The notes: generated by a model not told the origin, from the letters alone. 64,000 bases of DNA from Candidatus Omnitrophota bacterium (GCA_903856085.1 CAIOAT010000013.1:295430-359429); one strand, 5' to 3'. Numbered from the stretch's first letter, positions 41,701-62,154 are shown. Translations and numbers: made by a program.

Positions 41701-44700
41701 AAAACACAAGCTGAGGCTCCGCGAGCGGTCACGATCTTGCCGCCCTTGAAGTTTTCCGCGATCCTCGGTAATTCCACCGCCGGCTGATCGCTTTGTAATA
41801 GCGAATCCATTTGCGCCTGAGCTTCAGTCCAAAACGCGTTCGAGGGACTTTCTTTCAATAAGCCAACAACCTTCTTGGCGTTAGCACTGATTTTCTTGGC
41901 CCCAAGGGTCGTTTGGATCTCTTGGGTGTCCCTCATCTCAGAACGCTGCTCAGAGACAGAAAACTCTCCATCCCTAACTCCGCCCGCTTGTTGCGCCCAT
42001 ATCCTCTCGGTGTGAAAAGCCGCATCCTGCAAAGTAACATCGGACGGCAATAAGAAGACAGTCGCTCCAAACGCTCCTGTGAATTGAGGGTATTTTTCGC
42101 GCGGATCGATTTCCGCAACAAGCTCATAGACGCCTTTCTCACCAGCCTGCTGTAAAGGCTTAATAATCCCTTCCCCCGGGATCTCCTGATCATGCCACGG
42201 CGGAACCGAGGTCCCTTTGCCTCTCGGTCCAAAGTGGACGAAGAAACGAGCCCTCTGAAGAGCTTCGTGCTTCATCCGAACCAACAACTTCAGCTGAAAA
42301 CGTCCGGACGCCTGCGGCTCGATCCTTACGCCTTTTTCAGGAAATTCAATGGCTCCTGCCAATTCCGCTTTCGCAGCCCCCGGAAGCACCACGGTTTTCT
42401 TTTCTTTTTGAGAAGGAATTCCGACCGCGAAATAATGAAAGCCGTTCGCTTCCAACTCATAAGGATCGTAGAAATGACGTCCGTCCACAACATTGAAATG
42501 CTCTGTAACGGATTTTCCAGAGGCCTCGGTCATCCCTCCCTCAAAAAACAGTGTTCGCCAATCCGCGTATTCGGGCCATTCGGTCACCAAAATTTGGGCG
42601 TCACTACCGCGAATCGCCTCACGCGCATTTTCAGCTGCATTTGTTTTATGATCGAAAAATTCGACCCCTTTAAGGTCCATCGCCCTTTTTGAAAAATGGT
42701 TTCGCACACTCGAAGCTGTGGCAGGATGCGCGTCCGTGACCCGCACCTTGGCGCCCTGTGCTAGCAACGCTTCTATTAATTTCAGGGAGGGCGCATTTTC
42801 AATGGAAGAATTCGGCCCGGGCTTATAAGCAAGGCCCAGAAGTGTGACCGTTTTCCCGCTCAAATTGCCTCCGACCGCTTCGCGCGTCTTATCGACATAG
42901 AGTTTAACCGCTCGCTCATTGCTCTCAGCGAACGCGGTAACAAAAGGCACTCTTGTGTCTGTCCCGTTACTCCCGCTAAACCCATAATGGCGCTTTAGGA
43001 TCTCGATCTGTTCTCGATATTCCCGGAGTTTGTCCATAAGACCTTCGCTGTGACTCTCTGCGAATTTAGTAAATTTTTCAAGAGCGGCAAAAAGATCGAA
43101 TCCACCAAACCCGATCCCGGGCTTCAGGTAGAGGTCTCCCACGACAGGATCCGCGCCAAGGCCTTTGAGGATGTCGCGAATATCGCCTCCCGACCTTTCG
43201 GCCAGCTCCGCGAGCGAGATCATAAAAGCGATCCTTCCGGCGAGAAAAAATTCGATCGCTTTTTTCACGAATTCGTCCATTCCACGGGTCAGAGAAGTAC
43301 CGGTTTCCCCGACGAAAGGACTCGGCAGCGTTTCATGGCTGATACCAAAATATTGAAAACCAAAACCCGCAACCTCCGCGGGATCCCAGGCGTTGCGCCC
43401 GTCAAAAACAAGCGGCCTCTTCTCCCTGTCGGGGAACATCGTTTGAACCTTTTTAAAATTGAGCTGTCTGAACGCATCCCATTCAGTGACAAGCACGATC
43501 GCACTGGCCCCTTCCATCATGCTGTAAAGATCTTCCGGATTTTGAAAATACTGCACGGGCGCCGCAGTGCCGGTGCCCGGGGCCGGATTCAGATCCGCAA
43601 GGGTTTTTTGTAAAGAGGGGATCGCCACAGGATCATAAACCCGCACCTGAGCGCCCCATTCCACCAATTGACGGATGATCAAGATAGAACGCGCTTCCCG
43701 GTCGTCGCTGGTATTGGGTTTAAAAGCCGCGCCCAGCACAACGACGGTTTTGTCTTTCACCCCGTCGAGCTTTTGCTTGATCCCGTTCGCGAACATTTGC
43801 CACTGTGCTTCATTGACCGCAAAGGTATCCATCATGAGCCCGAAAGGCATACCGGCTTTCGCCAGCTGTCTCATGAAAGAAAGGGAATCTTTCGGAAAAC
43901 ACGACCCGCCCCATCCGATCCCGGCTGAGAGAAACATCGGTCGGATCCTGGGGTCCGCTCCGAGTTTTTCAGCGACCTTTTTGACATTGAATCCGAAAAG
44001 CGCAGCATACCAGCTCAGGTGATTGATGAATGAGATCTTCCAGGCCCGGTAACCATTGGCCGCATATTTGACGAGCATGGCGCTTTTGATCCCCATCTTG
44101 AAGATCGGGATGGGTTTCCCCGGGTATTGAGGATTGATATTTTTCGGATCGTAAAGCGCTGCCACCCGGTCGGCAATCGCCGGCTTCTCAGCGCCAACAG
44201 CCATGCGCCCGGAACCTCCGAGGGCATCCTCCACCTCCAACCCCTCGCGCAGGAATTCCGGGATCCAGGCAAATTCGATCTCGGCGCCTTGCGGAAGACC
44301 GACCTGGTGTATCCTGGCTTTCAGCCTGTCAATGGTCTCTGGCGGAGCCGTGCTCTTTCCGATAATGATCTTCTTCTCGCCGGGTTTCATCAGTCGGGCG
44401 ATATCAGCAACCGCATCTTCGAGGAAATGGGTGTCACTTTCCCCATTGGAAAGATAGGGCGTCGGCAGGGCCAGGTAGATGATCTCGCGGCCCTCGATCG
44501 CTCCAGCAAGATTCGTCGTGAATCGGAGACGTTTCGCCGCCAAGCCTGCTTGGAGGAATTCCTCAAGACCCGGCGCGTAATTGACCAGCTTTCCACCATT
44601 TAAGGATGCCACGCTCGCGGGCTTAATATCCACAGCGGTCACATCATGACCGAATCGGGCAGAAAGCATAGAAGCTTCCGTCGCACCCACAAACCCTGCG

Positions 44701-47700
44701 CCACCGATCACCGCGATCTTCTGAGCCTCGTGCTGTGGCCACGCCGCATTTAATGTTCCGGCGTCTGAGGTTCCTGTCCTCGCTTCAGATCGCATCCCCT
44801 GCGTCGCCCCCTCAGAAGAATTGACGCCCACCGGGACCATTTGAAGGACCTGAAAACGCCACCCCAGCTGAGCGATCCCCGCGGGATCTTTCCTCTTCAC
44901 CACTGAAATGCCGACTCTCCATCCTTCTTTTTGAATAGAAGATAATGTGTGTTTCTTTTCGTAATCGATTTGGAGCATATGATCCCGGGTCTGATACACC
45001 AGGCTGGACTCCAACCCGAGCAACGAAATGCTCCCGACCCCGAACCACACTTTTCCTTCCTCTTTATTATAAGGAACCTTCGAGAAATGGATGGGAACCA
45101 CAACATGACGCTTGTGCTCGAATCCGTCCTTTTCTTCCTTCAATACTCGCGCAAGAACCACGGCCGTATCCCGGCTCGAATCGAGAAAAAAGACCTCTCC
45201 TCTTTCGAAAAGATCTTTCGTCTCAGGACTCTGCATCATGTTTTTTAATGCCCCGTAAACTTCCGCATCCCACTCTTTCATGTCCTCAAGAAGTTCGGGC
45301 ACAAGCGTCGCGATAAAGGCCATCACGGGACGAACGCCCTCCACCCCGAAAATAGCGTGGGCTTTGTCCCTGCCGATACCGGAAACCGTCTGAAGAAGCA
45401 TTTTCAGGTCTTCGGGCTTAGTCCCCTGGATCATTCGCTTTAGCCAATAAGTCCTAGGCTTTTGCTGCCGCAACTGCTCTCCAGAATTTCCGGAAACAAG
45501 AGAGCGCAGATCGTCCAGGATCAGAGATCCTCGCTGTTCTCTTTTCTTTTCCGGCTTCATGACCCCCGCGGCCTGCAATTCAAGGATTTGAAAATCGGGA
45601 ACTCCGATCGGTAAAGCCCCCTCCATTAACACCGAAAGAGGATAAGGCTTCCTCTCCTCGCCCGCCCCGTAAACTTCCCCCGTGATCGTATTTACAATGT
45701 GATAAGTCATGGCAGCTTCTGGATCGAGCATGTCCGTGAGCCATTGAAACGCTTTGTTTCCGTAAAACTGTCCCCAGGCCTTCGATTCTCCTCCGTCGAT
45801 GGCAGGATATTTTTGCTCTCCCAGATTAAGTCCTATGATGTATTTCTTATCGCCGACCTGAACGCCAAACCCTACAAGCTTTTTGTTCAAGGAACCGAAC
45901 CTCTTTCCCTTGGATTCCAGCAGGAAATAGAGGTTCTGCCGGAAAAGCTCATCCCTAAAAAGCCTTTCGTATTCTTTGCTGCGCGACTGAATGTAACCCT
46001 GCAAGACGGTCTCGGAGAGTTGGACCACAAAACGATCAAAAAGCCGGAGCGCCGCCAGATGAATCCGGACTTTTTCTAAAAGATCGTTCGTTTTGTCAGC
46101 CTCCGCCTTGAGCCGCATCATTTCCTGATAAAAATCGGGAGCTTCCTTTTCGAATCCTTCGAAATAATAAAGGATCTTTGCGAAGATCTCGCCCCTCGCC
46201 GCGTGATACGCGATCGACTTGTAGCTCTCGACGCCATGCGTCCGTACTTGCCGGGCGCTTTCAACAAACGTCAGGACTCCGGGAGGAGCGATCTCCAGAG
46301 CATTCGAAGGCTCACTCCTCCAGACAAATCCTCCGTCATTCCCGGATTTTTTTGAAAGAAATCTCAAAGCGCTTTCGGCAGAAAGTCCCGGCTTTGCCAA
46401 CAGAGCTTTTTGTTTCTCGGATTTCTGAACGACCCTCTGCCAAAGCTTGATATGCGCCCTTGCCTGACTTTTTTCCATATCGACCAGAGGCGAGGACCGG
46501 AGCGCTTCCCACTGAAGATTCATTCTGTCGCCAGAGACCGCGTATGCCTTTTGAAGGGCGATAAGGTCCTCGATCATGGATTCCGCGAGTGGATAAGGGG
46601 CGTTGACGACCTTGATATTCCCGTTGTCGTCGAGAGTGCTTAAGATGAACTTGCCGTCGCCATCCTTGCTGTAAAACACCAGAAAACCATTCGTGATCTT
46701 CCACTTTTTTGATTTGAGATTCTCAACCACCTGTTCGTAAGTGATCTTATCTCTAAAAATATCCTTTTCGAGCCCAGTCTCATTATCCACGATGGTGAAA
46801 AGTTCCGGCTGCGCGCCTCCCCAGGCCCCCATCAAAATGGCCCCGTTCGGCAGACCTTTCATCATACTGGTCGCGGAAGCCTCAAGGATCATGTAGGTGA
46901 TCATGACGGTTCCGGAAACGCCCTGGAAAATAATGGGCGCGTCTTTAATATTGTAGTTCTCGATGGTCGCGAATTTATCTTCGAGTTTAAGTTCCCGGAT
47001 AAGACGCTGGATCTCCAAGAAGAGCCCGTGCGCCTCATCATCGAATTCCCGGCCGCCGATTATGGCGCGCGCCGCCGTCTTTTTATACTGTTCGAGTTTG
47101 GCAGGATCTGCCGCTAGCGACCGGAGAATCTCAAGCCATTTGTCCGGCCCCTTGTAAGAAACCTGTCTGCGCACATTCGAAACGATTGCTGTTAAAAGGA
47201 ATTGCTTCCTGAGCGCCTGGGCCTTGGGATCCTTAAAGATCTGTTGCCATTCACTCTCATCTTCCAACGCCTTTTGGATCCGGGCTTGAAGATCTGCCAC
47301 AACCTGAGGCCCATCCACTTCCGTGATACCGAATTCTTCCTGATACGACTTCATCGCCTGATCGAACCATTCGGGTTTGTTCTGGCTTGCCTTGAGCCAT
47401 AGCATCAGCCGCCCCGCAAGGTAGGACTTGATCATGTCCGTTCTTTCCTTGAATTCCCCCAGGAAAGCCTCATTCCCCGGATGGCCAATCTTGATGAAGA
47501 AATCCCGGTCATCCGATTCAGAAGACATCCCGAGTTTCGCTTTGTAAGTATTGATCAATTGACGCAAAAACGGCGCCTGCCATTGTTCGAGCAGTACCCC
47601 GTTGGTGCTCCGCAGCCCACCCTGGTTGAAGCTATCGATCACATCGACATACCCCGGCATCACGCCTCCGGACACCGCGGGCGTATGCTCGTACAACGCA

Positions 47701-50700
47701 ACACCGGTCACGAGATCGTAAGAAATTCCCACCGCATCCACGATGCTGATCGTTCCATTCCTGATAATGCGCGACCGCATCGCCTGGGGATACCCCAAGA
47801 GTTGAAATGAGGCTTCAGCCGGCCGGTAGATGGTCGGCGAATACACAGAATGATTCATGTGGTGATGAGGCGCATCCGGAAAAAGAGGCGTCGGGATACT
47901 GGCGAAGACCTCGTTATCCACAAAGAGAATTTTCTTTTTAGCGATGCCCTTTTCCTGGAGTTTTAGCGTAAGGAGTTCTTTGGTTTTCCCATAAACTGCC
48001 AGATGCAGATCACGCCAAAGATTGGGACCGCCATCACGAGTATCCGGATAAACTTCATCAAAGATTTGGACCTTTGTCCCATCATCGGCAATATAAAAAG
48101 CCTCGATATAAAAATTCGGCATCCCGCCGGAAAATGTGTTTGTCGGATAAACCTTAACTTTGATCTCGCGATCCACCGCTTCTCGGGCTTGCTGGAGCCG
48201 TTTCTTATACAGCGGGTCCCCTGCGCGTCCGATCCATTCCTCAGCTTTGGCGCGGTATTCATTGCCAGCATCGAGAAAAATACTAAAACTCAATCCAGGA
48301 TCTTCGGTCAAAACCTCGCGAAGATAATCCCCCAGCGTCTTCTTACCGCTCGTCACTTCCTCCGGAAGATCTTTGGCGAATTCCTGTCCCTTGATCCGGT
48401 CATAGATCACATTCACGGCAAAAGCGTCGATGTTCGCTTTCTTGGGCTGGCCAAAATTCTTTTGCCACGAAGGAAAAAGATCATGCATCAGAGCTCCTAA
48501 TCCCCCCGTCACGGTTGTTGCTGCGACCAAGCCCGCAATCGTTTTGCCATATTTTTCTTCAAGCTTCTTTAGGATTTCACGATCCAACCCCGCCTCGAGT
48601 TGCCCAGTAACAACGGTATAATCCTCTAGCTCGGGAGCATTTTTCTCGGCCCAGGAACGCAATTCGGCGCGCTTGGAATTTGCTTTTTGAGCCACGCGAA
48701 CCATGGCTTGCGCGATTTCAAGACCATTTCCCACAGCCCCGCCTTCGATCACAGGCAAAACATTCTCGGACACATATCCGGCAGATCCGAGAGCATAAAG
48801 AAGCAATTGACCGCTCTCCTCCGCAGCCTGAACTCCCCTCGAGATACTGCGCGGCATGTTGCTTATAAATGCCGCAAGTTCTGAAATCGTCGGAAGATAA
48901 TGAGGCATGAAAACCGCTGCGATCGCAGCAGGATCCGCCGCCCGAGCTTCGGAACGAAGGGCAGCAAGAGGAATGCCATTTAAATGGAACGCGTTAAAGC
49001 GGGCTGTTTCATATAATTTTTTAAACTCCGGAACCAACTCGTCCCAGTCGCGGACAGAATTCATCCCGCGTGCTCGCATATCATAAAAGGCTTGGGGATC
49101 GTTCATGTAGACCGCAACAGCTCGCTCAGTAGCCTCATCAAAAAGCTTCATGACTGCTTCAAAGGACGGGGTTTTCTCAAGATCTTTGATCTTGTTCAAT
49201 CCTGGAAAATAGAACTTGAAGCCTGTGGCCATCGCCGCGTCTTCCTTGGGGTCCAGGACCGTATTATCAAGCCCGCCCACCGCATGCACGATCGGGATTC
49301 CGCCATACCGGAGGGCCTGCATTTGGCCAAGTCCGCAGGGTTCAAATTTTGAGGGCATAAGAAAAAAATCTTCCGCGGCATGTGCCTTCCGAACGAGCGT
49401 TTCACTGAAGGCGGGCGTGAAATAGGCGCGCCCCGGGAATTGCGCCATTAAGGCCCTGAAACCCTCCGCGTAGTGATTTTCCTCCCCGATCACGGCGATT
49501 TGAGCATTCGGATGCCGATTCAAGAGCCGGCGTGCTTCTTCAAGGATCAGCTCCGGACCCTTTTGATCCGCAAGTCGCGTAGCCGCCACAAAAAGCATGG
49601 CGTTCGGGTTTTGCTGGAGGCCGACTTCTTTTTGAAACTCTAATTTATTCGCACGCTTGCCTTCGGCTACGTTTTCAGACGTGTATTTTTGATAGATTTT
49701 GTTATCCTTCGATGGATTCCAAACACCGCTATCCACTCCGTTCAAGATCCCCGTGAAATCATCTTTCCGTTCGAGAAAAACGCCTTGCAGACCCGTGTCG
49801 GGATCCGCAAGAAGTTCTTCGCGATATTTCGGGCTCACCGTCATGAATTTTTCCGAAAAAACAAGCCCGGCCTTCATCAGATTGAGCCCGCCATGGAATT
49901 CGAGATACTTCCACCCAAACGCCCATTCGGGCATCCCCATGGACATAAGAAGCTGTTTGCCGTAATTAAAAAGATCCGGACCATAACGCTGTTGATACGC
50001 CGCATCAGCATTATGGATCGTCATCGTGATCCCGGAGGTCTGGAATTCACTGGGGAAAGCGGCTCGGATAAAAGCCGCGACAAGTCCCGGATGCGCGTCG
50101 TGTAGATGAATGATGTCGGGTTTCTTGACAGCGAATTTTTTACGAAGGATCTCCACGGCGGCACGAGAAAAAACCGCGTATTCCCGGAGCCCGTCGAGAC
50201 TTCCGGAACTCCAGTAGCCTTTTTGAAAATAACCGTCTTTCTTGATGAAATAATACCGGACACTGTGCGCAACTGCGGTATAAACCTCAAAAGTTTCCTC
50301 GCGCCCTTCGATGGGGATCTTCACAGTAAACCCAGCATTTTCAACTTTGAAAGTTTTCTGGGTAAAAACCGAGGGGTGGCCCGGCATGATCACAAATTGA
50401 TGAGCCCCTAAATGTTTTAAAAGCGCCGGCGGTTTTTCCCGAACGACATCTTTCACTCCCCCTTTGCCAAAAAAATCCGCCGATTCCATCGCGATATGAA
50501 CCACATCGTGGACCGGCATAGTCATGGCTTCATCGTTTCGCACCTCACTCCGGACTTTTCGGCTCGTAGGGGGCGCAGAACGAAACGCCGCAGGCAATAT
50601 GTTTATATGAAGCTGCTGCCCTAAAAATAACGGGTTAAAGTTTCCGGCAAGTTCCGCCGCCACACTCAGCGCAGCCTTTTGAAAACTTTGGGGAGACACA

Positions 50701-53700
50701 GCCATAAGGGTAAATGAAGGTCCCGTAGCATTCCAAACAGGCAACCCCAAGACCGCAAACCCTGCTCCGCTGAAAGCAAGGATCGCTTCCTTTTCGAACT
50801 GAAGGTGGGAATATGAGCGATTAGCCCTCTTCTCGGAGCGAAATCCCCCGGAAAATGCGGGCTTTCTCACGCGAGAAGAAGTGAAGTGGGCCTGACCGAG
50901 AGAGTCCACGCCGGTGAGCCGGAGGGTGAACTCTAAATCTTCGCCTGTTGTCCCGCTCGGAATTTTCGATTTGAATTCAAAACCGACATCGCGCCACTTC
51001 AAATCAACAGAGGGCATAGAAGCGCCCCGGGAGGGGTCATAAAGGGTCGAGGAAACCTCAAATTGGGCCTGACTTCCTTGGCTTTCACTCTGACGCAGTT
51101 TTGTTTCGGCTAAACGGATCGTGATGCCCGGAAAAATTTCCGCCGTTTTCCCGGAGCTCAGCGTAACCAGATGTTCAATTTTGCTGAAATCGAATGGATC
51201 TTTGATTGACTCAACAAGCGTTCTGTTTTCAGCTGTCGGCTGACCTTCATCCCGTATTTCGGAACGAATAAATTTTGCGGTCGAACCCTGCGGCAATGTC
51301 ACAGTGGGAATTTCATCCAGCGGACGCGGTTGAATGCTGAGAGGAACCTGGATGTTTTCCTTAAACTCTGTTTGCAAGATCCTTTCCACCACCGGGATTG
51401 CGCGAAGGATTCCGTCCTGAATTTTGTCACGCCCAAGGCCATCATAAAACCAATCCAAAATGGGAGCCGGCGCTCTTTTTTGACCTTCCTTATAATGAGG
51501 GTCTGTTTCGTTTAAAATAGCAACAATCACTGCGTCTGATATCTGACCTGTGGTGTTTAATTTTGACTGGATAAGCGCCACGGCTTTGGCTTTATCAATC
51601 TTCAACCGGTCTCTCATATTCATAGCAGAGTAAAAAACATCCCCGGCAAACTCTCTTCCGAGGAGCTTCCAAAGAACCACTCGCTCAAAACCTGTCGCGT
51701 TGCTTAGAAGATACCGTTTGGGACTTTGCGGATCTCCCCATCTTCCGTTGTAATCACCCCAAAAAGCATTCACGAGCGCCTGCAGGGACTGTCCATACTT
51801 GAGCTCCTTGGGCGGCTGAGGAAGGCTTCCCATTTTTATATTTTGCATCCACTGAGGAGCGACATACATCTTATCGGGTGTCTGTTTCAACAAGCCTTCA
51901 GCCCGGATTTTCTCAATGGCCTGCACCGCCAACTTCCGCGTATCCGGCCAGGTCCTATTCAATTCGGCCAAAGCAACGGCCACTGCTTGGGCGGCTTTTG
52001 CCCTTATTTCTTCCATCCTTTTTATAGAAGCGGCATCCTCCGCCGCGCCGGCGAAACGGATCGGCTTCCCAACCATCCGGCTCGCATTCATATAAAATCT
52101 TTCGGCCGACAAGGCTCCGTCAAAACGAATTTCGACATAAGGCTCGCTGCCACCCCCATAGGACTCCACAGTCCCGATTCTTCCGGCCCGCTCCACGCGC
52201 ACTCCTGCCATTCCTTTAACGCCTTTGAGATTCAGGGGCACCTCTTCCCCTCCCCGCATCTCGGCACGGATTTCGCCAACAGCGCTTGGCTCCGACGTTG
52301 CAAAAGAAACCATCAAAATATCGCCACGCGTCAATTGAGTCCCGCTCTCGCCGAGCACTTGAATTTTCCTGATTTTAGAAGAATTAAATTTCCCAATCTC
52401 CCTGATGGCTTGCGGCATTGAAATATCTTCCTTGATAAGAAATTCGCCCGGAGCCAGCTCCTTGATCAAAGAACTTAGACCCGCGTTTCCTCCTTCTAAC
52501 TCACTGGCTATTGCATCCAACCGCCGCATTAGCCCCAATGTCAAAGCGCGATAGGGAGCCAGTATCTCAATGACCGAATTGACGGTTCCGATCACTTGCA
52601 ACAGATCCGCCGGGAAATAGGTCAAGGCTTGGGTTAACACACCCAGAACTTCGTGCTTGTCGTTGGGATTGAGCGAATAATTTGAATCAATTTCTGTGCG
52701 GATAGCCTTAAGCTCCGCAATCATTTCTCCCATGCGAGCTTCGGTGATTTGAGGAGCCTGCTTGCCCGCCCGCACCTCGGAGCGGACTGCTTTACCCGGG
52801 GATTTCTGTGACAGTGCCACCGATGGGATCTCGTCCATCGGGCGGGGTTTGAGCGTGATCCCGATCTCAAGCCCCTTTTGGACTTCCGCCTGGAGGATTC
52901 TTTCCACCACGGGGATGGCGCGAAGAACCGCTGATTGGACATCGAACCCGCCCTCATTCCATCTTGCAACGGCCACCGGAGCTTTGGAATTTCCGGGCCT
53001 TGCTTCTCCCCATATTTCCTCAATGGTTTTATCGGAGATACGCCCGTATTTCAATTTAGACCTTATCTGCCAAGCTGTTTTCCCTTTTTCATCCTTAAGC
53101 CTTTCCCGAAGATTGAACGCGGAAAAGAAAACATCTCCGGCCAGCTCATGCCCCAAGATCTTCCAAAGCACGAAACGCTCCACGCCTGTCGCATTGCTAA
53201 AAAGATACCGCTCTTTCGCCCTTCCGTTATAAGCTCCCCAAAAAGCCTCCACCAAGCCTTGCAGGTCTTGGGCATACTCGGCGTCCGTCATTTTACGATC
53301 TTCTTCCTCTTCGCCGAGATTCTTGGGAGGCATTGCCGAACTGCTTGCAATGGCGATTTTTTTCATCCAACGGGAATGAACATACATCCGGTCGGCGGAT
53401 TGGTTCACAAGACTTTCTTTTTTAATGAGCGCGATGGCTCCTTTTGCCAGACCCGTTGTTTTAGTCCAGGTCTTCGCCAATTCACTGGCAGCTTTTTGCG
53501 CTTCAGCTTCCGCAGCCTTTCGCGATCCCAGCTCTTCCACCTCCGAGGCAAAAAGAAGGGGTTTTCCCACCGAGGCGCTGCCTCGTAAATAAAACGGTTG
53601 GATATCACTCTCTCCGTCGAAAAGGATCTCCAAAAACGGTTCTTTTCCACCGCCATAACCCTTTACGGTTCCAACCTTTCCGCCCCGTGTCACGCGGACA

Positions 53701-56700
53701 TTCATCTTCCCTTTGATTCCCTCTAAGTTCAGTGGTACCTCGCCCATGTTTCTCACCTCCGAGCGCGGGAAGAAGAGGATCGTCACCACGGAGCCAAGGA
53801 TTTGGTCCCGGCTCCAGGATTCCATGGAAAAAGATTGGCTCCTTTTCAAACCCGCAGGATCTATATGAAGGGCTTGGTCGCCGCGCTGTGCGTCCATATC
53901 CATCAGGCCCTCATGAGCTCTAAATTGACGGATCAGCGTATCAATGAAGAGCTGCCAGGCCACCTTCGGATCCCCCGGCAGGCTCCCGTCCCCCGCAGGG
54001 ATCTCCACGGCCAGGGCATCGGCTCCCTGAAATTCCGCGGCCCGTTCGGATAAATGAACCACGGCTTTGTGATTGCGCAGAAAGTCCGGAAGCACTGATT
54101 TTCCGACCCCTTCAAGACCTTTTAAAAAATCCGCTTCGTTAAAATTGGATGCAAGCATGATTTCATCGGGAAGCTCTCCCGGGCCAACCGGGCCAACCCC
54201 CGCAACAAACGCGGCAACGCCAATGCGGTGGGTTAGGGTGTGTACCATGGGACCGATGTCTTCATCTTCAGCCTTAGAAAAAAAGTTTTGAAGAAGCTTA
54301 TCCAGCGCTCCCTGGAACAGAAGGGTCTGAGGTTCTTTTGTTTTTTGAAAGGTCTCTAAAGCCTGGGTGATAGGAGCGGCTACGGCGCCAACCGCGGATA
54401 AAACGAGGTCATTCCGACCGCCCTTGTACACGTCTTCGAGGATCTTGTTAAGCATTTTGCGGACCATTCGGAAATTTTCCGCATTAATCTGGCTCTGCTG
54501 TCCCCGGATCGCTTCGATCACTTCCCTTATCTGCCCGACAGCCTTATCCCGCGCTTCAGCGCGGGGCGCCAAAAACAGATTGGTTTGGATGTTGGGGCCA
54601 AGCCAGCGATAAACGCCCTCCGGCAACCGGTCCTTTGATTCCATAAGAGCACGCGAAGGATCATCCGTGGCAGCCGGAACCAAGAGAAATATTCCTTCGT
54701 AGTCTTTCCAGTTGTAATAAGGCGTCGTAAAAGCGGAGCCTAGAAGTTTCACCTGGTTGGCCGGAAGGCCGTAGCTCTGCATAGAGGCTTCTGAAAAGGT
54801 CCAAGATTCTTTTTGTTTCGAATTCCCCCAGCGCAGATAAACTCTGAAATTCCCGGCGTTAAGGAATGCGTCGCGTGCTGCCGAATCCGGGAATTCCAAG
54901 GTCGAAGAAAAATCAGCCCGGTCCCCGTGGATCTCCACCTTGCCATCCTTCGAGCTCATGACCGGCAGAATTGGATTTGAACGCACTTCGGCGCGGGGCG
55001 AACCGGCCGCGGGAGCTGCGTGTCCTACTGGCCGCATAGCCAACGAGGGACTTTCGGGTGTCATTCTTGCCAACACCCGATAGGCTTGCTCGGTCTCATT
55101 ACTTTTCTGATCTTGAAGAAAGGGCGTTAACCGGATAAATTTACCGAGCCCCAATTCATCAAAACTCCCGGTCGCAAACCTGACGCTTTTTTCTACGATC
55201 CGGATCGAGTTATCTTCACGCTTGCGAAGAATCGCAACGATCGGGAATTCGCCCTGATACGCTTGCAAAACCTTTGGTGTTGCATCCTGCGCGCCTTGAA
55301 CGGAGAGTTCGGTTTTTTCAAGCCCTGCTCGGAAAGAAACCCGCCCCTCGGATCCCACCACGCGATATTCCAGCGAATGGTCAGGATGTAGGACAAATCC
55401 CCAAAAGTTTGGATCTGCAGGCAAGGTTCCATCAAAACTGATAACGCCCAAGTATTGATCATCCGCCGGCAGGATCTTCACGCCGCCATAGGTCGCATCA
55501 ATCTCTTCGCCCAATGTTTTAAAAAATACGTCGACTCTTGCCGCGCGCAGTTCGGGGCGAAACAAACCCGAGGGTTGAGGCTGAGATTGCCGCGGGGAAA
55601 CGCCAACGGCAGAAGCAATGATTTTTTTGAAGCCCGCATCAAACTCCGCCCTATTCTCCGCGCTGCGATCGTGGTAAGAAGCAACGGTCTCGCGCACAAT
55701 ATCGCGAATCCTGGCAAAACGGACCGCAAGTTCGCGACGCCAAAAACGCGGCGACACGGCGCTAAAAAAAGAGACCTGCTGGGTGACTTTTTCAGGAGCG
55801 ATATGAGAACGCGTAATCGCGTTGGAGCCAAGAAGCGCTGTCAGATAATTTTTGTTGGAATCGGCTGTGATCTCGCCGATGGAAGGCATGATGCCGATAT
55901 AAGAACTGCCGGAGGCTGTGATCGCCTGTTTAAAACCCTCGGTGTGAAAACCACCGGTGATGATGACCGCTTTCGTCTGCTTGCGCTCCTTCATCACTTC
56001 GCGCGCCCTCTTCATCATAAAATCTTCACGCTCGATGGCGCCGGAGTAAAAATTCAAAGCTTGCTCGTTAAGTTGCTGTAAGGCGGGCAGCGTGTCGCGT
56101 ACGGCGCTCTCTTTGCCCCGCACCCGATCAAGCGCTTGCATTAACTCGGAAGGAGAAATTTGACGTGACAGAACTTGCTGATATTCTCCGCGAGAAAGCT
56201 CCAAATGAAACAGCTTTTTAAGGAGTTGGTATTCGCGAAGCGAGCGCACAAGCGTTTTTTCCTCATCAGTTTTTACAAGGACTTCGACCAAGGACGCAGT
56301 AAGCTTTTTAATCTCGGACTGAAGCACCTCGCTCTGGAGTTCGCTTATAAGGATCATTTGCTGGATGCGAAGGCGGAGGTTCGGGTAAGCATTAAAAGAA
56401 AAGTCGGCTGGTAACGCATCCATCAGACGCTCGAAAACGAAGCGGGTCTTGTAGAGCGGCAAACCGCCTTTTTTCGCCATTTCGAACATCGCATTCATTT
56501 CATCTCCAAGCTTCTTTTCACCGTACTCCGTACTCTGTACTCCGTACTTAGCGATATCGCGTAGAAACGTTGCTTTCTCCGCTTCAACTTTTGAGAGATC
56601 AATCTTCCCATCCAACGATCTCAGCCGGAAATAGCGGACCAGGGTCGGCCACGCAAGCTGCGCCTTAACATCTGTAAGATCATTTCGTAGGATCGTATTC

Positions 56701-57425
56701 GAAGATTTCTTGAGTGTTTCCAGCCAGCTTTCAAGCGGGACGGTCCCCTCATCGAATGCAGCGTAACGGGTTATGAGTTCGCGAAGCTCAGGGTTCAGCC
56801 GAAGGCTTGCCTCTTTTTGCCACTCAAGATAAACACCTTTCAAAAACAGATCGGAGGCTCCTCGCCCTTCATAAACTTTCCTATAGGATTCACGATCCTT
56901 GGCGTATGCCGCAGCGTTTTCAATACCGTACGCCTCTGCTTGTACAGCGTCTTTCGTACCCCGTACTCCGTACGGCAACTGATCGATCATGAACACTTCT
57001 GCGCCGGTAAGTTCCCCGGCCTGCATGAGTTTTTCGTTCACTGAATGCTGAAGTTGGGCGTTCTTAGGAAAGAATCTGAAAGGTTCGGGCGTAAGTTTAT
57101 TGCCGGCGCCTTCTAAAAGGACAAGCTGGATGCCGTAATTTTTGGATAAATACTGAAGGATATTCTGGATATTCTTCTGGGCATCGTAGTTCGCATGAGC
57201 TTCCTGGATATGAATAAGGAGAGATCCTCCTTCAGAGCTCTTGATGCTGTCCGTGATCTTGCCGAACTCCGCTGGAATTTTAAATGAGTTTTCGGAAAAA
57301 AACTTCGGGAAGTTTTCGACGGTTTGGCCATAGGCGACAGGAGCAGGCGTAAGCGTGTTGGTCACGAAGAAAGTGACAACAATAACGCCCGCAAATAATC
57401 TCTGTAACCGCTTGAGACAGTTCAT
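38739..57425 (-). CDS. Giant 6228-aa multi-enzyme protein: signal peptide + TraB/GumN-like domain + duplicated unknown modules + glycogen synthase + alpha-glucan phosphorylase + UDP-glucose dehydrogenase + degenerate UGDH-like domain + 2H phosphoesterase + cupin, joined by recurrent RSE[VA]R linkers
   Basis: Uninterrupted 18,687-nt ORF with an ATG at 57423-57425. Domain calls rest on motifs read directly in the translation (see sub-features). Antisense ORFs across it are short and carry no motifs. Confidence 0.85.
   Translation of the reverse strand: [6228 protein letters not shown]
39621..39908 (-). other. Cupin domain with a His/Glu metal site (sugar-phosphate isomerase-like), aa ~5840-5935
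   Basis: [25 protein letters not shown] (HxH…E motif 1) and [18 protein letters not shown] (P…H motif 2). Confidence 0.45.
41226..41723 (-). other. 2H phosphoesterase (LigT/ThpR-like) domain, aa ~5235-5400
   Basis: Two H-x-T-x motifs in hydrophobic context ~88 aa apart ([10 protein letters not shown] and [10 protein letters not shown]), the hallmark of the 2H superfamily. Confidence 0.55.
42546..43328 (-). other. Second, degenerate UGDH-like domain lacking the catalytic cysteine, aa ~4700-4960
   Basis: [14 protein letters not shown] aligns to the [13 protein letters not shown] block but with Cys-to-Phe/Asp substitutions, followed by a UGDH C-terminal-like [20 protein letters not shown]. Confidence 0.5.
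43626..44720 (-). other. UDP-glucose/GDP-mannose 6-dehydrogenase domain, aa ~4236-4600
   Basis: [16 protein letters not shown] NAD-binding motif, catalytic [13 protein letters not shown] (Cys present), and C-terminal UDP-binding [18 protein letters not shown]. Confidence 0.75.
46746..48623 (-). other. Alpha-glucan (glycogen/maltodextrin) phosphorylase GT35-like domain, aa ~2935-3560 (may extend further C-terminal)
   Basis: [29 protein letters not shown] resembles the PLP-lysine block EASGTSxMKxxxNG of GT35 phosphorylases. An upstream Gly-rich [10 protein letters not shown] fits the N-terminal glucan phosphorylase region. Confidence 0.5.
48966..50522 (-). other. glgA: Glycogen/starch synthase (GT5, GlgA-like) domain, aa ~2302-2820
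   Basis: N-terminal [24 protein letters not shown] (compare GlgA …E.APF.KTGGL.DVV) and C-terminal [28 protein letters not shown] (GlgA EPCGL motif). Confidence 0.7.
51267..52253 (-). repeat. Internal protein module copy 2 (aa 1725-2053), paralogous to copy 1
   Basis: [45 protein letters not shown]…MYVAPQWM…[38 protein letters not shown]…[12 protein letters not shown]…[11 protein letters not shown]. Collinear with copy 1 at roughly 45-50% identity by eye. Confidence 0.7.
52785..53750 (-). repeat. Internal protein module copy 1 (aa 1226-1547, unknown function)
   Basis: [44 protein letters not shown]…MYVHSRWM…[38 protein letters not shown]…[12 protein letters not shown]…[11 protein letters not shown]. 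Confidence 0.7.
55566..57248 (-). other. N-terminal TraB/GumN/Tiki-superfamily-like domain (paralogous to the 733-aa neighbour)
   Basis: Shared blocks with the 57696..59897 protein: [16 protein letters not shown] / IQIQDVHAHATAQQNI, LLEGAG / [17 protein letters not shown] / VTGGFHTDGL. These resemble the GxxH…E…GxGH pattern of the TraB/GumN family (assignment inferred). Confidence 0.4.
57327..57425 (-). other. Predicted Sec signal peptide / N-terminal membrane anchor of the giant protein
   Basis: [34 protein letters not shown]: basic n-region, hydrophobic core, AxG-type cleavage context. Confidence 0.55.
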
Positions 57426-57625
57426 GAAATGGTCTTTCCCCTTTCAGAATTTGTATGGAGGATTTATAGAAATGTAACACGATTTTCTAAAATTTCAAGG
57501 GGTTGGAAAAGTATTTATCAGACTATGTTTAATGCCTTTTAAAGAAGGACTCCTTCCGAGGCTATTGCTAGTTTATGCTACAACTTGGTCTTGGCAGCAA
57601 TACCGATCTTTAACATCGCAAGGCA

Positions 57626-57654
57626 TTGATTTTACACGGGTTCTGGGCTATATA
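57626..57654 (+). promoter_or_regulatory. Candidate sigma70-like promoter for the 733-aa secreted paralog gene
   Basis: TTGATT (57626-57631), 17-nt spacer, TATATA (57649-57654), ~40 nt upstream of the ATG at 57696, in the divergent intergenic region shared with the giant gene. Confidence 0.3.
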
Positions 57655-57695
57655 TATGGGGTGCGCTCCCAACAGCTATTCAAGCGGAATCCATA

Positions 57696-59897
57696 ATGAA
57701 CAAGGTGCCCGTGAAAAAGCTACTCGCTGTCTTTCTTTTCCTGATCCTTCCGCTTACTTCGGCTCCGGTCGACTTGAGATCTGAAACGTCGGGACCCCAC
57801 TCGGAGGCATCTCTCCCTTTATCCAGCCTGGCGGTCCCTGAAGAGATTGGAAAAGTCCAGGAGCGCTTCGCTGGAAGCGGCTCAAGAATCATCATCCAGA
57901 TCCAGGATGTCCACGCACACGCCACCGCCCAACAAAACATCGCCGCTATGTTGGAGCATCTCCGCTCAGTGTTCGGTGTTCAGACCGTCGCGCTGGAAGG
58001 CGCCTGGGCCGCCACTTCCCTTTCTAAAAGCCATGCTATCCCGACCTCGCGTGAAAAACAGCTTCTCGCCAGAACCCTGCTTGAAGATGACAGAATCTCC
58101 GGGCCGGTTTATGCCGCGATCATGTCCTCGGAGCCGATGACACTTATTGGGATTGAAGATAACGTCCTTTACGAAAAAAACCGCGCTATTTTCCTCACAC
58201 ACCTCGTCAAGAATCGTGAGATCCAGGAAAAACTCCGGGCTTATAGCAAGACCCTTGAAGAATCTCAGCAATCGCTCTGGGGACCGAACCTTTTGACCTT
58301 TGGGAACGCTTTCGGAAAATTCCGCGAGGTTGAAGACCTTGGAAAATTTTTCCCTGTCCTCCTGAAAGCTGACGAAACCCAAAACGCTGAGATCTCGGAT
58401 CTCCCTCAGATCTCGCTCTTAAGAGACATCCTCGCCCTGGAAAAGACCTTTTCGAAGGAGAGACTGGAGCAGGAGGTCAAGCTCGTGATGCGAGAATATA
58501 AGGACACTCCCTTGACCTTGGAAGAATTGATCCGTGGCGGCAAGATCCCGGCTGAAAAAATAGGGTCTTACCCTGAGATCAAAAAACTGACTCATCTCTA
58601 TCAAATGCGCGATCAAATTTCCATTCGGGACTTAACGGCCCAGATCGAGACTTTGACCGGTCGTATCCTCGAAAAACTTCTTAAAACGCCGGAAGAAAAC
58701 GCGTTGTGGAAAAAAACCGAGCGGTTTTATCTCGCCCGGCGCATCCTTCTTTTACAAGCGACTCCCTCGGATATAACGGCCTATGAGAATGAAAAACTTT
58801 TGATCGAGCCCGAACTCGCCGAAGCCGGTCTTTCGGAAAGCCTGTCCTTGTCGCTTGATTTTTATGAGGCGGTCAAAAAACGCGATGAGATCTTCTTCGA
58901 TAAAATCATGAACGATCCGGCGCTGGCCGGCAATGTCGCAGTGGTAACAGGCGGATTCCACACGGATGGCCTTTCGCAAAAATTCCGCGACGCAGGGATT
59001 TCCTACATCACAGTCACGCCAGAACTCAGCAATACTTCTGCGAATGAAAAACTCTATGAAACCAGGATGGCGGATGACGCAGAGAGGATGGCAACAAATT
59101 CAAAGACGTCGCCTGAGATCCAACATCCAACACCCTCGGCTCACAGCGTCACACTATCCGAACTTCGAAACTCTATCGCTTGGGTCGATGACAGGTTCCC
59201 GGAAAGTTTTAAGGTGCTGCTACAAACCAAGGATGTCCGGAAAGCGGTCGCGGCTTTTCTGGGTGAGCCGGTTACGGTATCAAGATCCGCCAGGATTTCT
59301 CAGCTTTCGCGCGAAGGAAGGGTCATCCCGGAGTTAAGAACAGGGACCGCGATCAATGCCTCCGAGTTGCGGATCAGTGAATTTATGGCAAAGCCCCGTT
59401 TGGAACAGCTAAAAATTGTGCGGGGCTGGCAAACGCAAGGACCGGACCGACACGAAAAAGCAATGCTGGTCTCTTCGGTCAGCGTCCTTACGAGAATGCT
59501 TTCGCAGGAAAATGTCGTGAAACTTCTGAAGGAGGCCGTGGCGGGCGGTGATATCGTAGCGTTGGCTCAGGATGTCCCTGCAACACAAATGCCGGAGATC
59601 TTGCTATCCACCCGCGGAGTCGATCGCTTTGAGACGCCGGACATCGCGTCTCTGATCGAAAGAACGCCGCGTTTCGGACGTCTTGCCAAAAAACACCCCT
59701 TCGCGATCATGGAGAACGGACGTCAGGGCGGGGCTTATGTTGTGTTGCCGGAAAAACCAATCTCGCTTGTTCTTTTTCGCATCATCACGCTGAATCCCAG
59801 CCTTTACCAAGCCGCCAAAGATTCGGCGTTCCTAACTCTTCTGGAAGATCTCGTCTCTGAAATCTTGGCGCGGGAACTTCCACAGAAATCCGTTTAA
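57696..59897 (+). CDS. Secreted TraB/GumN-like protein, stand-alone paralog of the giant protein N-terminal domain
   Basis: 733 aa. Signal peptide MNKVPVKKLLAVFLFLILPLTSAP, then blocks collinear with giant-protein residues ~60-620 (QIQDVHAHA…LEGAWA…GGFHTDG). Confidence 0.75.
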   Translation: MNKVPVKKLLAVFLFLILPLTSAPVDLRSETSGPHSEASLPLSSLAVPEEIGKVQERFAGSGSRIIIQIQDVHAHATAQQNIAAMLEHLRSVFGVQTVALEGAWAATSLSKSHAIPTSREKQLLARTLLEDDRISGPVYAAIMSSEPMTLIGIEDNVLYEKNRAIFLTHLVKNREIQEKLRAYSKTLEESQQSLWGPNLLTFGNAFGKFREVEDLGKFFPVLLKADETQNAEISDLPQISLLRDILALEKTFSKERLEQEVKLVMREYKDTPLTLEELIRGGKIPAEKIGSYPEIKKLTHLYQMRDQISIRDLTAQIETLTGRILEKLLKTPEENALWKKTERFYLARRILLLQATPSDITAYENEKLLIEPELAEAGLSESLSLSLDFYEAVKKRDEIFFDKIMNDPALAGNVAVVTGGFHTDGLSQKFRDAGISYITVTPELSNTSANEKLYETRMADDAERMATNSKTSPEIQHPTPSAHSVTLSELRNSIAWVDDRFPESFKVLLQTKDVRKAVAAFLGEPVTVSRSARISQLSREGRVIPELRTGTAINASELRISEFMAKPRLEQLKIVRGWQTQGPDRHEKAMLVSSVSVLTRMLSQENVVKLLKEAVAGGDIVALAQDVPATQMPEILLSTRGVDRFETPDIASLIERTPRFGRLAKKHPFAIMENGRQGGAYVVLPEKPISLVLFRIITLNPSLYQAAKDSAFLTLLEDLVSEILARELPQKSV

Positions 59898-59989: not shown

Positions 59990-60430
59990 CTATTTTTTTT
60001 CCGCGAGATCTTTCCAATTCGCGAGCGTATTCTCAAAACTCTGGTCGAGAATAGCCCGCACTTTCTGTTCTCCGAGGATCATCCCCGCGATCCCAAGATC
60101 CCAGCGAAATTCTGCGGCAATTTCAACTCCGGCAGGTTTTGTTTCAAAAACAAGTGCTCGCGTCATAGAGCCGTTCATGGGAAGCGTGCTTTGAATAACC
60201 GCTTTCCTCATAGGCTCCCAAACGGTCATTGTGTGCTCTACCTCAATATGCTGGCGGTCCAAGACACAACTTTCACGCCAGCGCATTCCACCCCCTTCGC
60301 GCACTGCTCCTGTTCGCTCACTTTCTTTGACGCCATCCACCCATTCAGGCGTACGCGTCACATCAGCGAGCAGATTCCAAATCCGCTCGAGTGGGGCCTT
60401 TATTAAAATATTTTTTGTGAGTAGATTCAT
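59990..60430 (-). CDS. SRPBCC (Bet v1-like/polyketide cyclase) family protein
   Basis: 146 aa. N-terminal IKAPLERIWNLLADVTRTPEW pattern typical of SRPBCC ligand-binding proteins. Confidence 0.55.
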   Translation of the reverse strand: MNLLTKNILIKAPLERIWNLLADVTRTPEWVDGVKESERTGAVREGGGMRWRESCVLDRQHIEVEHTMTVWEPMRKAVIQSTLPMNGSMTRALVFETKPAGVEIAAEFRWDLGIAGMILGEQKVRAILDQSFENTLANWKDLAEKK

Positions 60431-60440
60431 TAAAATTGAT

Positions 60441-60980
60441 TCAGGCGTCTAGAGATGAACGGTTTTGTTTTTGAAAAAATTTCAAAGTGCGACTGCTCAT
60501 CAAAAGAAAGCTGCCTCCAATGTAAGCGCTTAAAACATATACAATCACCTTCGGCAATCTCTGACTCCCGTTTCTATTGCATTCAAAAACCATTTGCATG
60601 ACCACTAGAAGCAGCAATTGCGTCAGATTGCCCAGCCAAAGCATCGAGTTGTTGATATGTTGGAGGATGTCACGTTTTTTAAAAAGATCAATCCTTTCAC
60701 CTTTCTGCCGCAACCTGATAAAAACTTCAGGTAATTGACCCAACGCTGGGATTAGGATTAGAAATGCGAAGCCGAGGATAGCAATGAGGATCGCGTAAAA
60801 AATAAAAAACTGACTTTTTGGCATCCACCCGTTCGCCTCCCCCGAAATTCCGAAATGCGCCGCCATGGTAGACGGTAATGCGAAATAATAAAATAATCCC
60901 TGGATCCCCATCAAAAGGATCATACCGAGAAAGATGTTCCGTGCTTTGTTCACTGTCGCCCTCCCTAAAGCCACGTTCAA
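60441..60980 (-). CDS. DUF1648/SdpI-like membrane protein
   Basis: 179 aa, 4 predicted TM helices. 4-nt overlap with xth. Confidence 0.4.
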   Translation of the reverse strand: MNVALGRATVNKARNIFLGMILLMGIQGLFYYFALPSTMAAHFGISGEANGWMPKSQFFIFYAILIAILGFAFLILIPALGQLPEVFIRLRQKGERIDLFKKRDILQHINNSMLWLGNLTQLLLLVVMQMVFECNRNGSQRLPKVIVYVLSAYIGGSFLLMSSRTLKFFQKQNRSSLDA

Positions 60981-61750: not shown

Positions 61751-61761
61751 GTGCTGGCAAT

Positions 61762-62154
61762 CTATTTGCTGAGAATGTCTTGCGCTCGTTCAGGCTGGTC
61801 GGTGCGGATCACGAGACACCCGCAGTCTTGGTTTGGCGTAGCGGTGCAATAGGCATAAGCGATATTAATATCCGCTTCGGCGAGAGATTGGCAGATGCGC
61901 GCCAGGGTTCCGGCTTTGTTATCGATCTCGACGACGAGGACATCTTGCTCCATCACGTAAAGCTCTTCTTGTTCAAGAAGAAGTGTCGCTTTAGTGGGAT
62001 GGTCGACGATGAACCGAACAACGGCATTATCGACGGTGTCATGAACCGCCATCGCAAGAATATTGACCCCGGCTTCGGAAAGAATGGCGCATGTGCGCGC
62101 CATAATGCCGGGACGATTCGGAAGGAATACGGAAAGTTGTTTTTGTATGGGCAT
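61762..62154 (-). CDS. Tandem ACT-domain protein
   Basis: Two ~60-aa beta-alpha-beta-beta-alpha-beta units (LSVFLPNRPGIMARTCAIL… and LVVEIDNKAGTLARICQSL…). Confidence 0.6.
   Translation of the reverse strand: MPIQKQLSVFLPNRPGIMARTCAILSEAGVNILAMAVHDTVDNAVVRFIVDHPTKATLLLEQEELYVMEQDVLVVEIDNKAGTLARICQSLAEADINIAYAYCTATPNQDCGCLVIRTDQPERAQDILSK

Follow-up and report, generated by a model that had tools for sequence, protein, structure and literature searches.

A divergent gene pair in Omnitrophota: a stand-alone protein and its paralog, the head domain of a possible secreted polyprotein

A 64,000-nucleotide stretch of DNA from Candidatus Omnitrophota bacterium (GCA_903856085.1, CAIOAT010000013.1:295430-359429; the whole stretch is called the window here) raises the question of why the gene for a giant protein lies back to back with a gene whose much shorter product resembles the N-terminal domain of the giant. 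A preliminary description of the window had taken this arrangement for a local duplication in which one copy of a secreted TraB/GumN-like protein was captured as, or released from, the leader domain of the giant. The two divergent open reading frames (ORFs) that it named are both present as described, and the gap between them is exactly 270 bp.

57696..59897, plus strand: stand-alone gene, 733 amino acids (aa), from the ORF list and its translation.
38739..57425, minus strand: giant gene, 6228 aa, from the ORF list.
57426..57695: divergent intergenic region, 270 bp between both ORFs.

The explanation that we favor, and to which we give a slightly better than even chance, combines ancient paralogs, a reusable family of head domains, a co-regulated pair of genes, and a giant that may be a polyprotein processed at its internal junctions. 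The paralogy, the head role of the shared domain, the antiquity and the conserved, probably co-regulated layout of the pair, and the junction architecture of the giant are its better-supported parts; the mechanism is one that we infer. In the stand-alone protein a signal peptide or anchor precedes a Tiki/ChaN/Ere-like domain, which a disordered linker connects to a separate alpha/beta domain at the C terminus. The giant begins with a signal peptide or anchor and the head domain and continues with 15 more modules bordered by the motif R-[SAP]-E-x-R, which marks what we call the junctions.

Comparison of the 733-aa protein with the first 1000 aa of the giant by BLASTP returned a single collinear alignment of residues 9-450 with residues 14-522 (77 bits, E=1e-18, 22% identity and 39% positives over 513 columns). 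The preliminary description had pointed to three shared blocks (I.IQ..HA.A.QNI, LEGA, and GGFHT.G). All three are present and are the best-conserved parts of the family, reading IIQIQDVHAHATAQQNI, ALEGA, and VTGGFHTDG in the stand-alone protein and LIHIQEAHANYDAQKNI, LLEGA, and ITGGFHTEG in the giant, and at this significance the alignment extends the homology collinearly beyond them, over ~510 columns. The shared span on the giant had been given as residues ~60-620. The homology holds, but its end lies earlier, near giant residue 530 (window ~55836), and residues 530-622 form a giant-specific helical tail that leads up to the first junction, RPELR, at residues 623-627. A tblastn search of the whole window returned only the reciprocal match between the stand-alone protein and the head, with no third copy of the domain in the window. 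The domain is delimited by BLASTP as follows.

57813..59075, plus strand: shared domain in the stand-alone protein, aa 40-460; QIQDVHAH lies at 57897-57920, GGFHT at 58950-58964.
55836..57293, minus strand: shared head domain in the giant, aa 45-530; IQEAHAN lies at 57189-57209, GGFHT at 55941-55955.

Conservation and predicted structure agree with this alignment. Twelve residues are invariant in 61 diverse homologs (H77, E105, G167, Y174, F459, Y460, R466, G491, G492, H494, P514, and Y527 in giant numbering), and within the stand-alone family the invariant positions are Q70, D71, H73, E101, G102, E154, Y159, N162, Y390, R396, G419, G420, F421, and H422. AlphaFold2 models of both domains, built from homolog alignments, reached a mean predicted local distance difference test score (pLDDT) of 88.6 for the stand-alone protein, whose shared domain is above 90 over most of its length, and of 81.9 for the giant head. 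Both models have one topology, an alpha/beta core broken by a helical insertion of ~250 residues: a hydrophobic N-terminal helix is followed by two short strands with the His motif, a strand with the Glu, the insertion, and two C-terminal strands, the first of which ends in GGFH. A chance or compositional similarity of the two proteins is ruled out by the E value, the collinearity, the reciprocal match, and the two independent structure models. The stand-alone protein and the giant head are paralogs.

Paralogs in this position might still be of recent origin, through a local duplication after which one copy was fused to, or split from, the neighboring megaprotein in this lineage alone. The two genes are adjacent, divergent, and homologous, and heads clearly move among different downstream strings of modules (the cargo), all of which would suit such an event. 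However, the pair is just 22% identical, and in a neighbor-joining tree of 92 domains the stand-alone proteins form a deep clade of their own, distant from the clade of the adjacent head, which comes only 31st when the 79 heads are ordered by their distance from the stand-alone protein. The layout is also retained in relatives. A scan of GTDB, with one genome per species, gave 174 coding stretches with the domain, from which 79 loci (given L-numbers here) were fetched for comparison. The head is at least 43% identical to that of the window in 27 of them, and 22 of the 26 that could be assessed have the stand-alone gene divergently upstream; it is absent at L017, L026, L027, and L030. The intergenic spacing is 201-489 nt in 18 of 19 measured loci, and the intergenic DNA is itself conserved. 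Across the same genomes the stand-alone orthologs are 47-73% identical and the heads 43-59%, so that the two partners have diverged in parallel. Given the deep clade, the head-to-head loci, and the parallel divergence, the two genes are by this comparison an old paralog pair that has been kept head-to-head in one giant lineage, and the duplication is ancient. We consider a recent duplication very unlikely, and in that form the earlier proposal falls.

Each partner also occurs without the other. At L005 a more distant stand-alone homolog lies between unrelated genes with no giant nearby, and head-bearing long genes lack a stand-alone neighbor both at the four loci named above and, among the 79, in all of the more distant head subfamilies. 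This answers in both directions the question of synteny raised with the preliminary description, which had asked about a stand-alone gene without a giant. The identical gene pair is found on 18 metagenomic contigs. The stand-alone protein has 114 homologs, nearly all of them Omnitrophota hypothetical proteins of 680-750 aa, and those that carry an organism name all come from Candidatus Omnitrophota or Omnitrophica.

The DNA between the two genes is more conserved than the genes themselves. An alignment of 14 orthologous intergenic regions contains 40 invariant columns arranged in blocks, while the flanking proteins are only ~50% identical. The following elements were located within it.

57626..57654, plus strand: putative promoter of the stand-alone gene, TTGATT, a 17-nt spacer, and TATATA, with hexamers (nearly) invariant in 14 species.
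57562..57581: tandem direct repeat resembling ATAGCAAT, one helical turn apart, in a conserved block with the minus-strand consensus ATAGCAATTTATAGCAATA and the window sequence CTATTGCTAGTTTATGCTAC.
57503..57521, minus strand: A/T-rich element with the consensus TTGATAAATCCTTTTTCAA and invariant T and A columns, directly upstream of the -35 box of the giant gene.
57471..57498, minus strand: putative promoter of the giant gene, TTGAAA, a 16-nt spacer, and a TG-extended TACATT, the only sigma-70-like site in a consensus scan.
Beside each start codon, both strands: GAAAGG ribosome-binding sites, conserved in the 14-species alignment.

The putative giant promoter coincides with the most conserved block of the alignment, CTTGAAATTT...TGTGTTA. 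The stand-alone promoter was missed by the consensus scan, its second hexamer ending in A, and was recognized by its conservation and geometry. The tandem ATAGCAAT repeat is a candidate binding site for a regulator between the two promoters, and the A/T-rich element may be an UP element or an activator site. The intergenic region contained no match to an Rfam family and no terminator-like site. In comparative terms this speaks well for promoters that stand back to back and share a regulatory site, so that the two genes, with a strongly conserved control region in common, are most likely co-regulated partners.

The head domain is far more widespread than this gene pair. In a profile search with the domain, 10,113 of 1.84 billion representative proteins (clusters at 50% identity) matched at E<=1e-3 and 7,291 at E<=1e-30. 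Among the best 150 matches, which range from 502 to 6292 aa in length, the domain begins within the first 53 residues in 149. The 174 GTDB stretches come nearly all from metagenome-assembled genomes (MAGs) named Omnitrophota, Omnitrophica, or "uncultured bacterium," with a few labeled Planctomycetia or Planctomycetales. At the 79 fetched loci the domain always follows a signal-peptide-like N terminus; the head-bearing ORF exceeds 3,800 aa and runs past the edge of the fetched DNA at ~33 of them, and the complete head-bearing ORFs measure 517-3,744 aa. Close relatives of the window carry two further giants, one of 11,695 aa and one of 4,642 aa with PPDK_N cargo, whose heads (the first ~620 residues) are 50-52% identical to that of the window. 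The three giants of 11,695, 6228, and 4,642 aa thus differ in length, and they differ also in cargo where Pfam detects any. The domain is a very large, uncatalogued Omnitrophota family that lies nearly always behind an N-terminal signal peptide or anchor, and it tops proteins of ~500 to >11,000 aa whose downstream content is unrelated between lineages. Attached as it is to very many unrelated cargo strings, the head behaves as a mobile, reusable N-terminal module. The leader-domain role that had been suggested for it in the megaprotein stands: it sits at the N terminus ahead of differing cargo.

Some genomes contain several head-bearing long proteins of different subfamilies (L013 and L052 in one MAG, L026 and L045 in another, and two tandem copies at L049). 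In these genomes, one head-bearing protein alone is paired with a stand-alone paralog.

What kind of domain this is was approached through sequence families, predicted structure, and motif order. Neither protein has a Pfam or NCBIfam match at threshold, and the domain family has no Pfam model of its own. Sub-threshold matches to PF04187 (ChaN, Cofac_haem_bdg), spanning the FY..A..R[DE]..M helix and the GGFH strand, came from 10 members of a set of 61 diverse heads, with E values down to 3.9e-5, and from 2 of the 56 stand-alone proteins scanned, where the best E was 0.0056. The Pfam scans of the alignments listed the 25 most frequent families; among the matches listed, other families recurred at most four times, at E of at least 0.12, in the stand-alone set and at most twice in the head set. 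PF04187 is described by Pfam as "Tiki superfamily, ChaN," and Pfam groups TIKI/TraB with ChaN and Ere. PF01963 (TraB/GumN) gave no match at E<=1 or E<=0.5 among the matches listed in Pfam scans covering 117 sequences. Foldseek searches of the Protein Data Bank (PDB) with the stand-alone model placed BcR135 and EreC at ranks 1, 2, and 4 (E 0.08-0.2); with the head model, EreC, BcR135, and ChaN (2g5g) recurred among coiled-coil noise, which arises from the helical insertion. On predicted strands, the motifs I(Q/H)(D/E)(A/V)H, LEG, FYxxAxxR(D/E), and GGFH(T) occur in this order, and H77, E105, R466, and H494 are invariant in 61 diverse members. This agrees with what we take to be the order that defines the superfamily: a His after strand 1, a Glu after strand 2, an R[DE]xxM helix, and a C-terminal GxxH strand. 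We therefore provisionally place the domain as a distant member of the Tiki/ChaN/Ere/TraB superfamily with a ~250-residue helical insertion, a placement that is supported by motifs and models and not proven. The earlier label "TraB/GumN-like" survives at the level of the superfamily, through the ChaN matches, the BcR135 and EreC structures, and the motif order; at the level of the PF01963 family itself it does not.

Comparison with characterized relatives sharpens this placement. ChaN, a heme-binding lipoprotein of Campylobacter jejuni, represents the only Pfam family matched repeatedly (12 members, through the R[DE]xxM helix and the G-x-x-H strand), and it is extracytoplasmic, as the present domain is predicted to be. 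Unlike ChaN, the Omnitrophota domain is twice as long, owing to the ~250-residue helical insertion, and retains catalytic-type His and Glu residues. EreA, EreB, and EreC and Bacillus cereus BcR135 (6xcq, 6xcs, 2rad, and 3b55) resemble the modeled domain in having a helical lobe set into the alpha/beta core between the His/Glu strands and the G-x-x-H strand, whereas Ere and BcR135 share only 9-14% sequence identity with it and the Ere proteins are cytoplasmic resistance esterases of ~400 aa rather than heads of long proteins. TIKI1/2 and TraB/PrgY/GumN differ in being ~250-400 aa long, with a C-terminal anchor and no long cargo.

The same comparisons bring up two other readings of the domain. 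It could be a noncatalytic module of the envelope, either a ChaN-like binder of heme or another cofactor or a head that assists docking or export, with the stand-alone protein as a competing or partner receptor. The sole Pfam family match is to heme-binding ChaN, tyrosines Y174, Y460, and Y527 are invariant, the domain is always membrane proximal at the N terminus, and the signal-anchor of the head clade is unusually conserved. Set against this are the catalytic-type His, Glu, Arg, and His residues, invariant in all subfamilies and in both paralogs, a pattern more like that of an enzyme than of a binder, and we regard a noncatalytic role as distinctly unlikely. Because the same invariant set of His, Glu, Arg, and Tyr is kept in both, the two paralogs are probably active enzymes rather than degenerate binding modules.

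An active enzyme could, in turn, be an exported, Ere-like hydrolase with a nonprotein substrate, acting on ester-linked envelope material or polysaccharide, in which case the RSExR motifs would be unrelated linkers or docking motifs. Esterases are indeed the nearest structural matches, together with BcR135, which was deposited under the name of a succinoglycan biosynthesis protein; enzymes of glycogen and nucleotide sugars abound in the cargo, genes neighboring the relatives include AlgX, MBOAT, and glycosyltransferases, and heads are present on giants without RSExR. Yet cargo is wholly different among giants with equally conserved heads, so a carbohydrate-linked substrate is unlikely to explain a universal head, and it would be left unexplained that the first junction always comes after the head. 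On balance we hold a nonprotein substrate to be unlikely.

Both proteins begin with what appears to be an export signal.

57696..57785, plus strand: export signal of the stand-alone protein, MNKVPVKKLLAVFLFLILPLTSAPVDLRSE, in which residues 6-21 form a hydrophobic helix in the AlphaFold2 model, behind a basic n-region.
57327..57425, minus strand: export signal of the giant, MNCLKRLQRLFAGVIVVTFFVTNTLTPAPVAYG, aa 1-33, the hydrophobicity maximum of the giant, with a helix at residues 2-22 in the AlphaFold2 model.

The preliminary description had called both of these signal peptides. A basic n-region and a hydrophobic helix of 12-17 residues are confirmed in each, although a signal peptide cannot here be told from an uncleaved anchor. 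The giant's signal is highly conserved, F19, T22, N23, T24, and P27 being invariant in the head clade (..VTFF.TNTLTPAP.AHA), and its orthologs end in AHA, a signal-peptidase-like site; such conservation suggests that it is more than a generic export signal. A hydrophobicity scan found no segment past the N terminus of the giant that attains the strength of a membrane helix. Close homologs of the stand-alone protein keep an ..AP..LRSE.. tract after the hydrophobic helix.

Within this tract, L-R-S-E stands in a disordered stretch right after the hydrophobic helix (57771-57785, plus strand, aa 26-30), and close homologs have LRSE or LRAE. It could be a signal-peptidase site or kin of the RSExR junctions.

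The junctions themselves are placed as follows.

55545..55559, minus strand: first junction, RPELR, aa 623-627, which ends the head module and lies within the segment 610-640, where pLDDT is <50.
39483..54995, minus strand: span of the other 14 junctions, at aa 811, 955, 1221, 1548, 1720, 2054, 2196, 2292, 2824, 2919, 4212, 5161, 5429, and 5977.

Recurrence of a short motif at module borders is what a polyprotein should display, and this was found in the giant: R-[S/A/P]-E-x-R occurs 15 times, 10 of them as RSExR, against 0.33 expected from residue shuffles; copies lie at domain borders, and a duplicated module is bounded by them. The segment around the first junction is modeled with low confidence and is probably flexible, and in most of the motif-carrying head-bearing ORFs the first copy lies at ~580-700. 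Junction 2292 falls just ahead of the glycosyltransferase family 5 (GT5) domain (from 2308) and junction 4212 just ahead of the N domain of UDP-glucose dehydrogenase (from 4236), and no Pfam domain is interrupted by a junction. Modules 5 and 7 (aa 1226-1547, at 52785-53750, and aa 1725-2053, at 51267-52253, both on the minus strand) are 46% identical (E=4e-95), and the duplicated unit, which begins at the fourth residue beyond a junction, extends right up to the following one. This repeat was seen by direct comparison of the modules; a self-BLAST of the whole giant printed no internal repeat.

Several ordinary explanations of the motif were rejected. It is not a general feature of Omnitrophota proteomes, being missing from the 16,069 aa of the other window ORFs and reaching, over the 79 loci, a density of 1.55 copies per 1000 aa where the ORF bears a head and of 0.19 where it does not; most occurrences outside head-bearing ORFs fall in further long ORFs that contig ends truncate. 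A DNA-level repeat or recombination site is ruled out, as the R, S, and E codons differ synonymously among the 15 sites, and this variation indicates that the motif is selected at the peptide level. A site of serine phosphorylation or glycosylation is ruled out, as entire lineages carry Pro or Ala in place of Ser: all sites are RPExR in L022 and RAExR in L029, with 12 copies in each. Such a concerted switch of a whole lineage argues for one common reader of the motif.

That reader need not be the head. The junctions could be cut or read by an unrelated factor in trans, such as a trypsin- or subtilisin-like protease encoded elsewhere, with the head and its paralog doing another job. In its favor are the Arg at the end of the motif, a residue suited to a trypsin-like enzyme; the lack of distinctive changes in heads from the RPExR and RAExR lineages; and the C39 or S8 peptidase domains of published giants, for which a part in processing has been suggested. 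However, no C39 or S8 domain was found in this giant by the Pfam scans, the motif clusters in ORFs with a head, and the head is bordered by the first junction, so a reader of this kind seems improbable to us. No recognizable protease domain was detected elsewhere in the giant either. Its Pfam content comprises glycogen-synthase-like GT5 and glycosyltransferase family 1 (GT1) domains, a weak phosphorylase, UDP-glucose dehydrogenase, a weak LigT, and a weak cupin; no family was detectable in modules 2-9 or in the last 247 aa. The LigT-like match (a 2H phosphoesterase, E 3.6e-4) and the cupin match (E 0.018) lie in the C-terminal modules at 41142-41930 and 39498-41126 on the minus strand. A full-text literature search for "RSEVR" returned no relevant paper. 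Trypsin cuts after both Arg residues of the motif, and standard tryptic proteomics is therefore uninformative about the junctions.

We hypothesize, to return to the favored explanation, that both proteins are exported and that the enzyme-sized modules of the giant, the first of them the head, are strung together in the manner of a polyprotein through exposed R-S/A/P-E-x-R junctions. The head in cis, the co-expressed stand-alone paralog in trans, or both would be a hydrolase that recognizes the junctions, and cleavage there would set the modules free, or mature them, at the cell envelope. We propose this part for the head and its paralog because the domain is hydrolase-like, stands first in a junction-bounded string, and is the only hydrolase-like candidate in the giant. 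That the two are exported hydrolases processing a secreted polyprotein is an unproven hypothesis drawn from sequence. Its most specific form would make the megaproteins secreted polyproteins and the Tiki-like head, aided or regulated by the co-expressed paralog, a leader peptidase acting at R-S/A/P-E-x-R, so that a single gene would supply the envelope, or a host or prey cell, with individual enzymes in stoichiometric proportion; this we consider unlikely.

The proposed mechanism may be likened both to a viral leader protease and to the peptide-cleaving Tiki and PrgY/TraB proteins. The metalloprotease Tiki trims Wnt, and the targets that PrgY/TraB inactivate are peptide pheromones; by analogy, TIKI/TraB could serve as a functional model for a head that cleaves junctions. 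Sanchez-Pulido and Ponting in 2013 and Bazan et al. in 2013 are said to have described TIKI/TraB as membrane-tethered extracytoplasmic domains. Viral polyproteins with a leader protease (for instance picornavirus Lpro and potyvirus P1/HC-Pro) offer a comparable layout, in that one ORF would hold enzyme-sized modules, a short recurring motif, and a hydrolase-like first module. Unlike them, the present protein is encoded by a bacterial chromosomal gene and is predicted to be exported, its cleavage is proposed only, and there is no kinship of sequence or fold.

A number of observations count against this interpretation, beginning with the identity of the domain. The listed PF04187 matches score 11-16 bits, under the gathering cutoff of 27.7 bits; they cover profile positions ~126-204 of 213, the C-terminal third, and come mainly from one clade, and a Pfam scan of ten distant subfamilies gave no ChaN match. 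The Foldseek matches to Ere, BcR135, and ChaN are not significant (E 0.08-2.5, template modeling score ~0.15-0.24), and profile searches against PDB sequences with two alignments (A1 and A4) returned nothing relevant. The superfamily holds both esterases (Ere) and a heme binder (ChaN), and the fold therefore does not imply a peptidase. Regarding the junctions, cleavage is a prediction from sequence patterns, and the tie between head and junctions is a correlation. Neither RSExR nor any other enriched motif was found in the head-bearing long ORFs L044, L046, L062, L064, L077, L078, L080, and L081, and a co-variation check found no distinctive substitutions at conserved positions in the heads of the RPExR and RAExR lineages, a comparison that is uninformative. 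The cargo enzymes require nucleotide sugars and nicotinamide adenine dinucleotide, which fits export poorly; the export topology was read from hydrophobicity and models rather than from a dedicated predictor, and co-regulation from conserved DNA rather than from expression.

Giant proteins have been described in this phylum before. According to two preprints, Omnitrophota giants ("Archaeovorins" and others) are long multi-enzyme ORFs with GT5 starch-synthase, GT1, and PPDK_N domains and N-terminal export signals (bioRxiv 10.1101/2023.11.21.568195; 10.64898/2026.06.07.730766). The first of these states that, C39 or S8 peptidases aside, the N-terminal regions of giants generally show no identifiable domain, and notes that cleavage of giants was suspected and that, with no cleavage points known, a module-wise analysis was blocked (bioRxiv 10.1101/2023.11.21.568195). 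A term search of bioRxiv 10.1101/2023.11.21.568195 and 10.64898/2026.06.07.730766 found no mention of the head domain, the stand-alone paralog, or an RSExR-type motif. The window's giant is like those of West-Roberts et al. (2023) in phylum, in being a single ORF (6228 aa) with an export signal, and in its GT5, GT1, and UDP-glucose dehydrogenase domains. It is unlike them in falling far under the >30,000-aa class stressed by those authors, and it differs from the Archaeovorins, which have many transmembrane segments, in having no segment of membrane-helix strength past the N terminus.

What appears to be new is a Tiki-superfamily-like domain in a new architectural role, which is more general than a one-off duplication. 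It provides three handles on the giants: an alignable head domain in thousands of them, with a catalytic-looking set of residues that can be mutated; a dedicated stand-alone paralog, co-located with one giant lineage and sharing a conserved control region with it; and a short junction motif that divides the giant into enzyme-sized modules. Together, the head domain and the motif make the cleavage of giant proteins, and its sites, directly testable. If the junctions are processing sites, giants could be divided in silico into their true products for the prediction of structure and function, the motif would reveal the module content of each such giant from its sequence alone, and bacteria would be using a polyprotein strategy that until now has been linked with viruses. 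Should they not be processed, the motif still marks the units in which giants evolve. The domain family, at >7,000 clusters at 50% identity, merits a database entry.

One further domain and the surroundings of the pair may be described briefly.

59163..59894, plus strand: C-terminal domain of the stand-alone protein, aa 490-733, an alpha/beta fold with unassigned function and no counterpart in the giant.

In the AlphaFold2 model of this domain, strands alternate with helices after a disordered linker at residues 463-484. It is conserved in the syntenic orthologs and had no match in the giant by BLASTP or tblastn and none in Pfam or NCBIfam.

Minus-strand genes at 59990-62154, 3' of the stand-alone gene, are syntenic in the relatives L003 and L004. 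The syntenic set there includes a 146-aa Polyketide_cyc2/SRPBCC protein, an Exo_endo_phos protein, and an ACT-domain protein, and in the window's species these genes are followed by a two-component block (response regulators, Hpt, and a 1984-aa CHASE/PAS sensor). At L009, L011, L014, L020, and L021 the contig stops inside a 23S rRNA gene (positions 1-604), which is followed by a 5S rRNA gene, the rRNA genes lying ~4.5-5 kb upstream of the giant's start. In these five relatives the gene pair is thus ~2 kb from the 3' end of an rRNA operon, and many assemblies break near the pair because that operon adjoins it.

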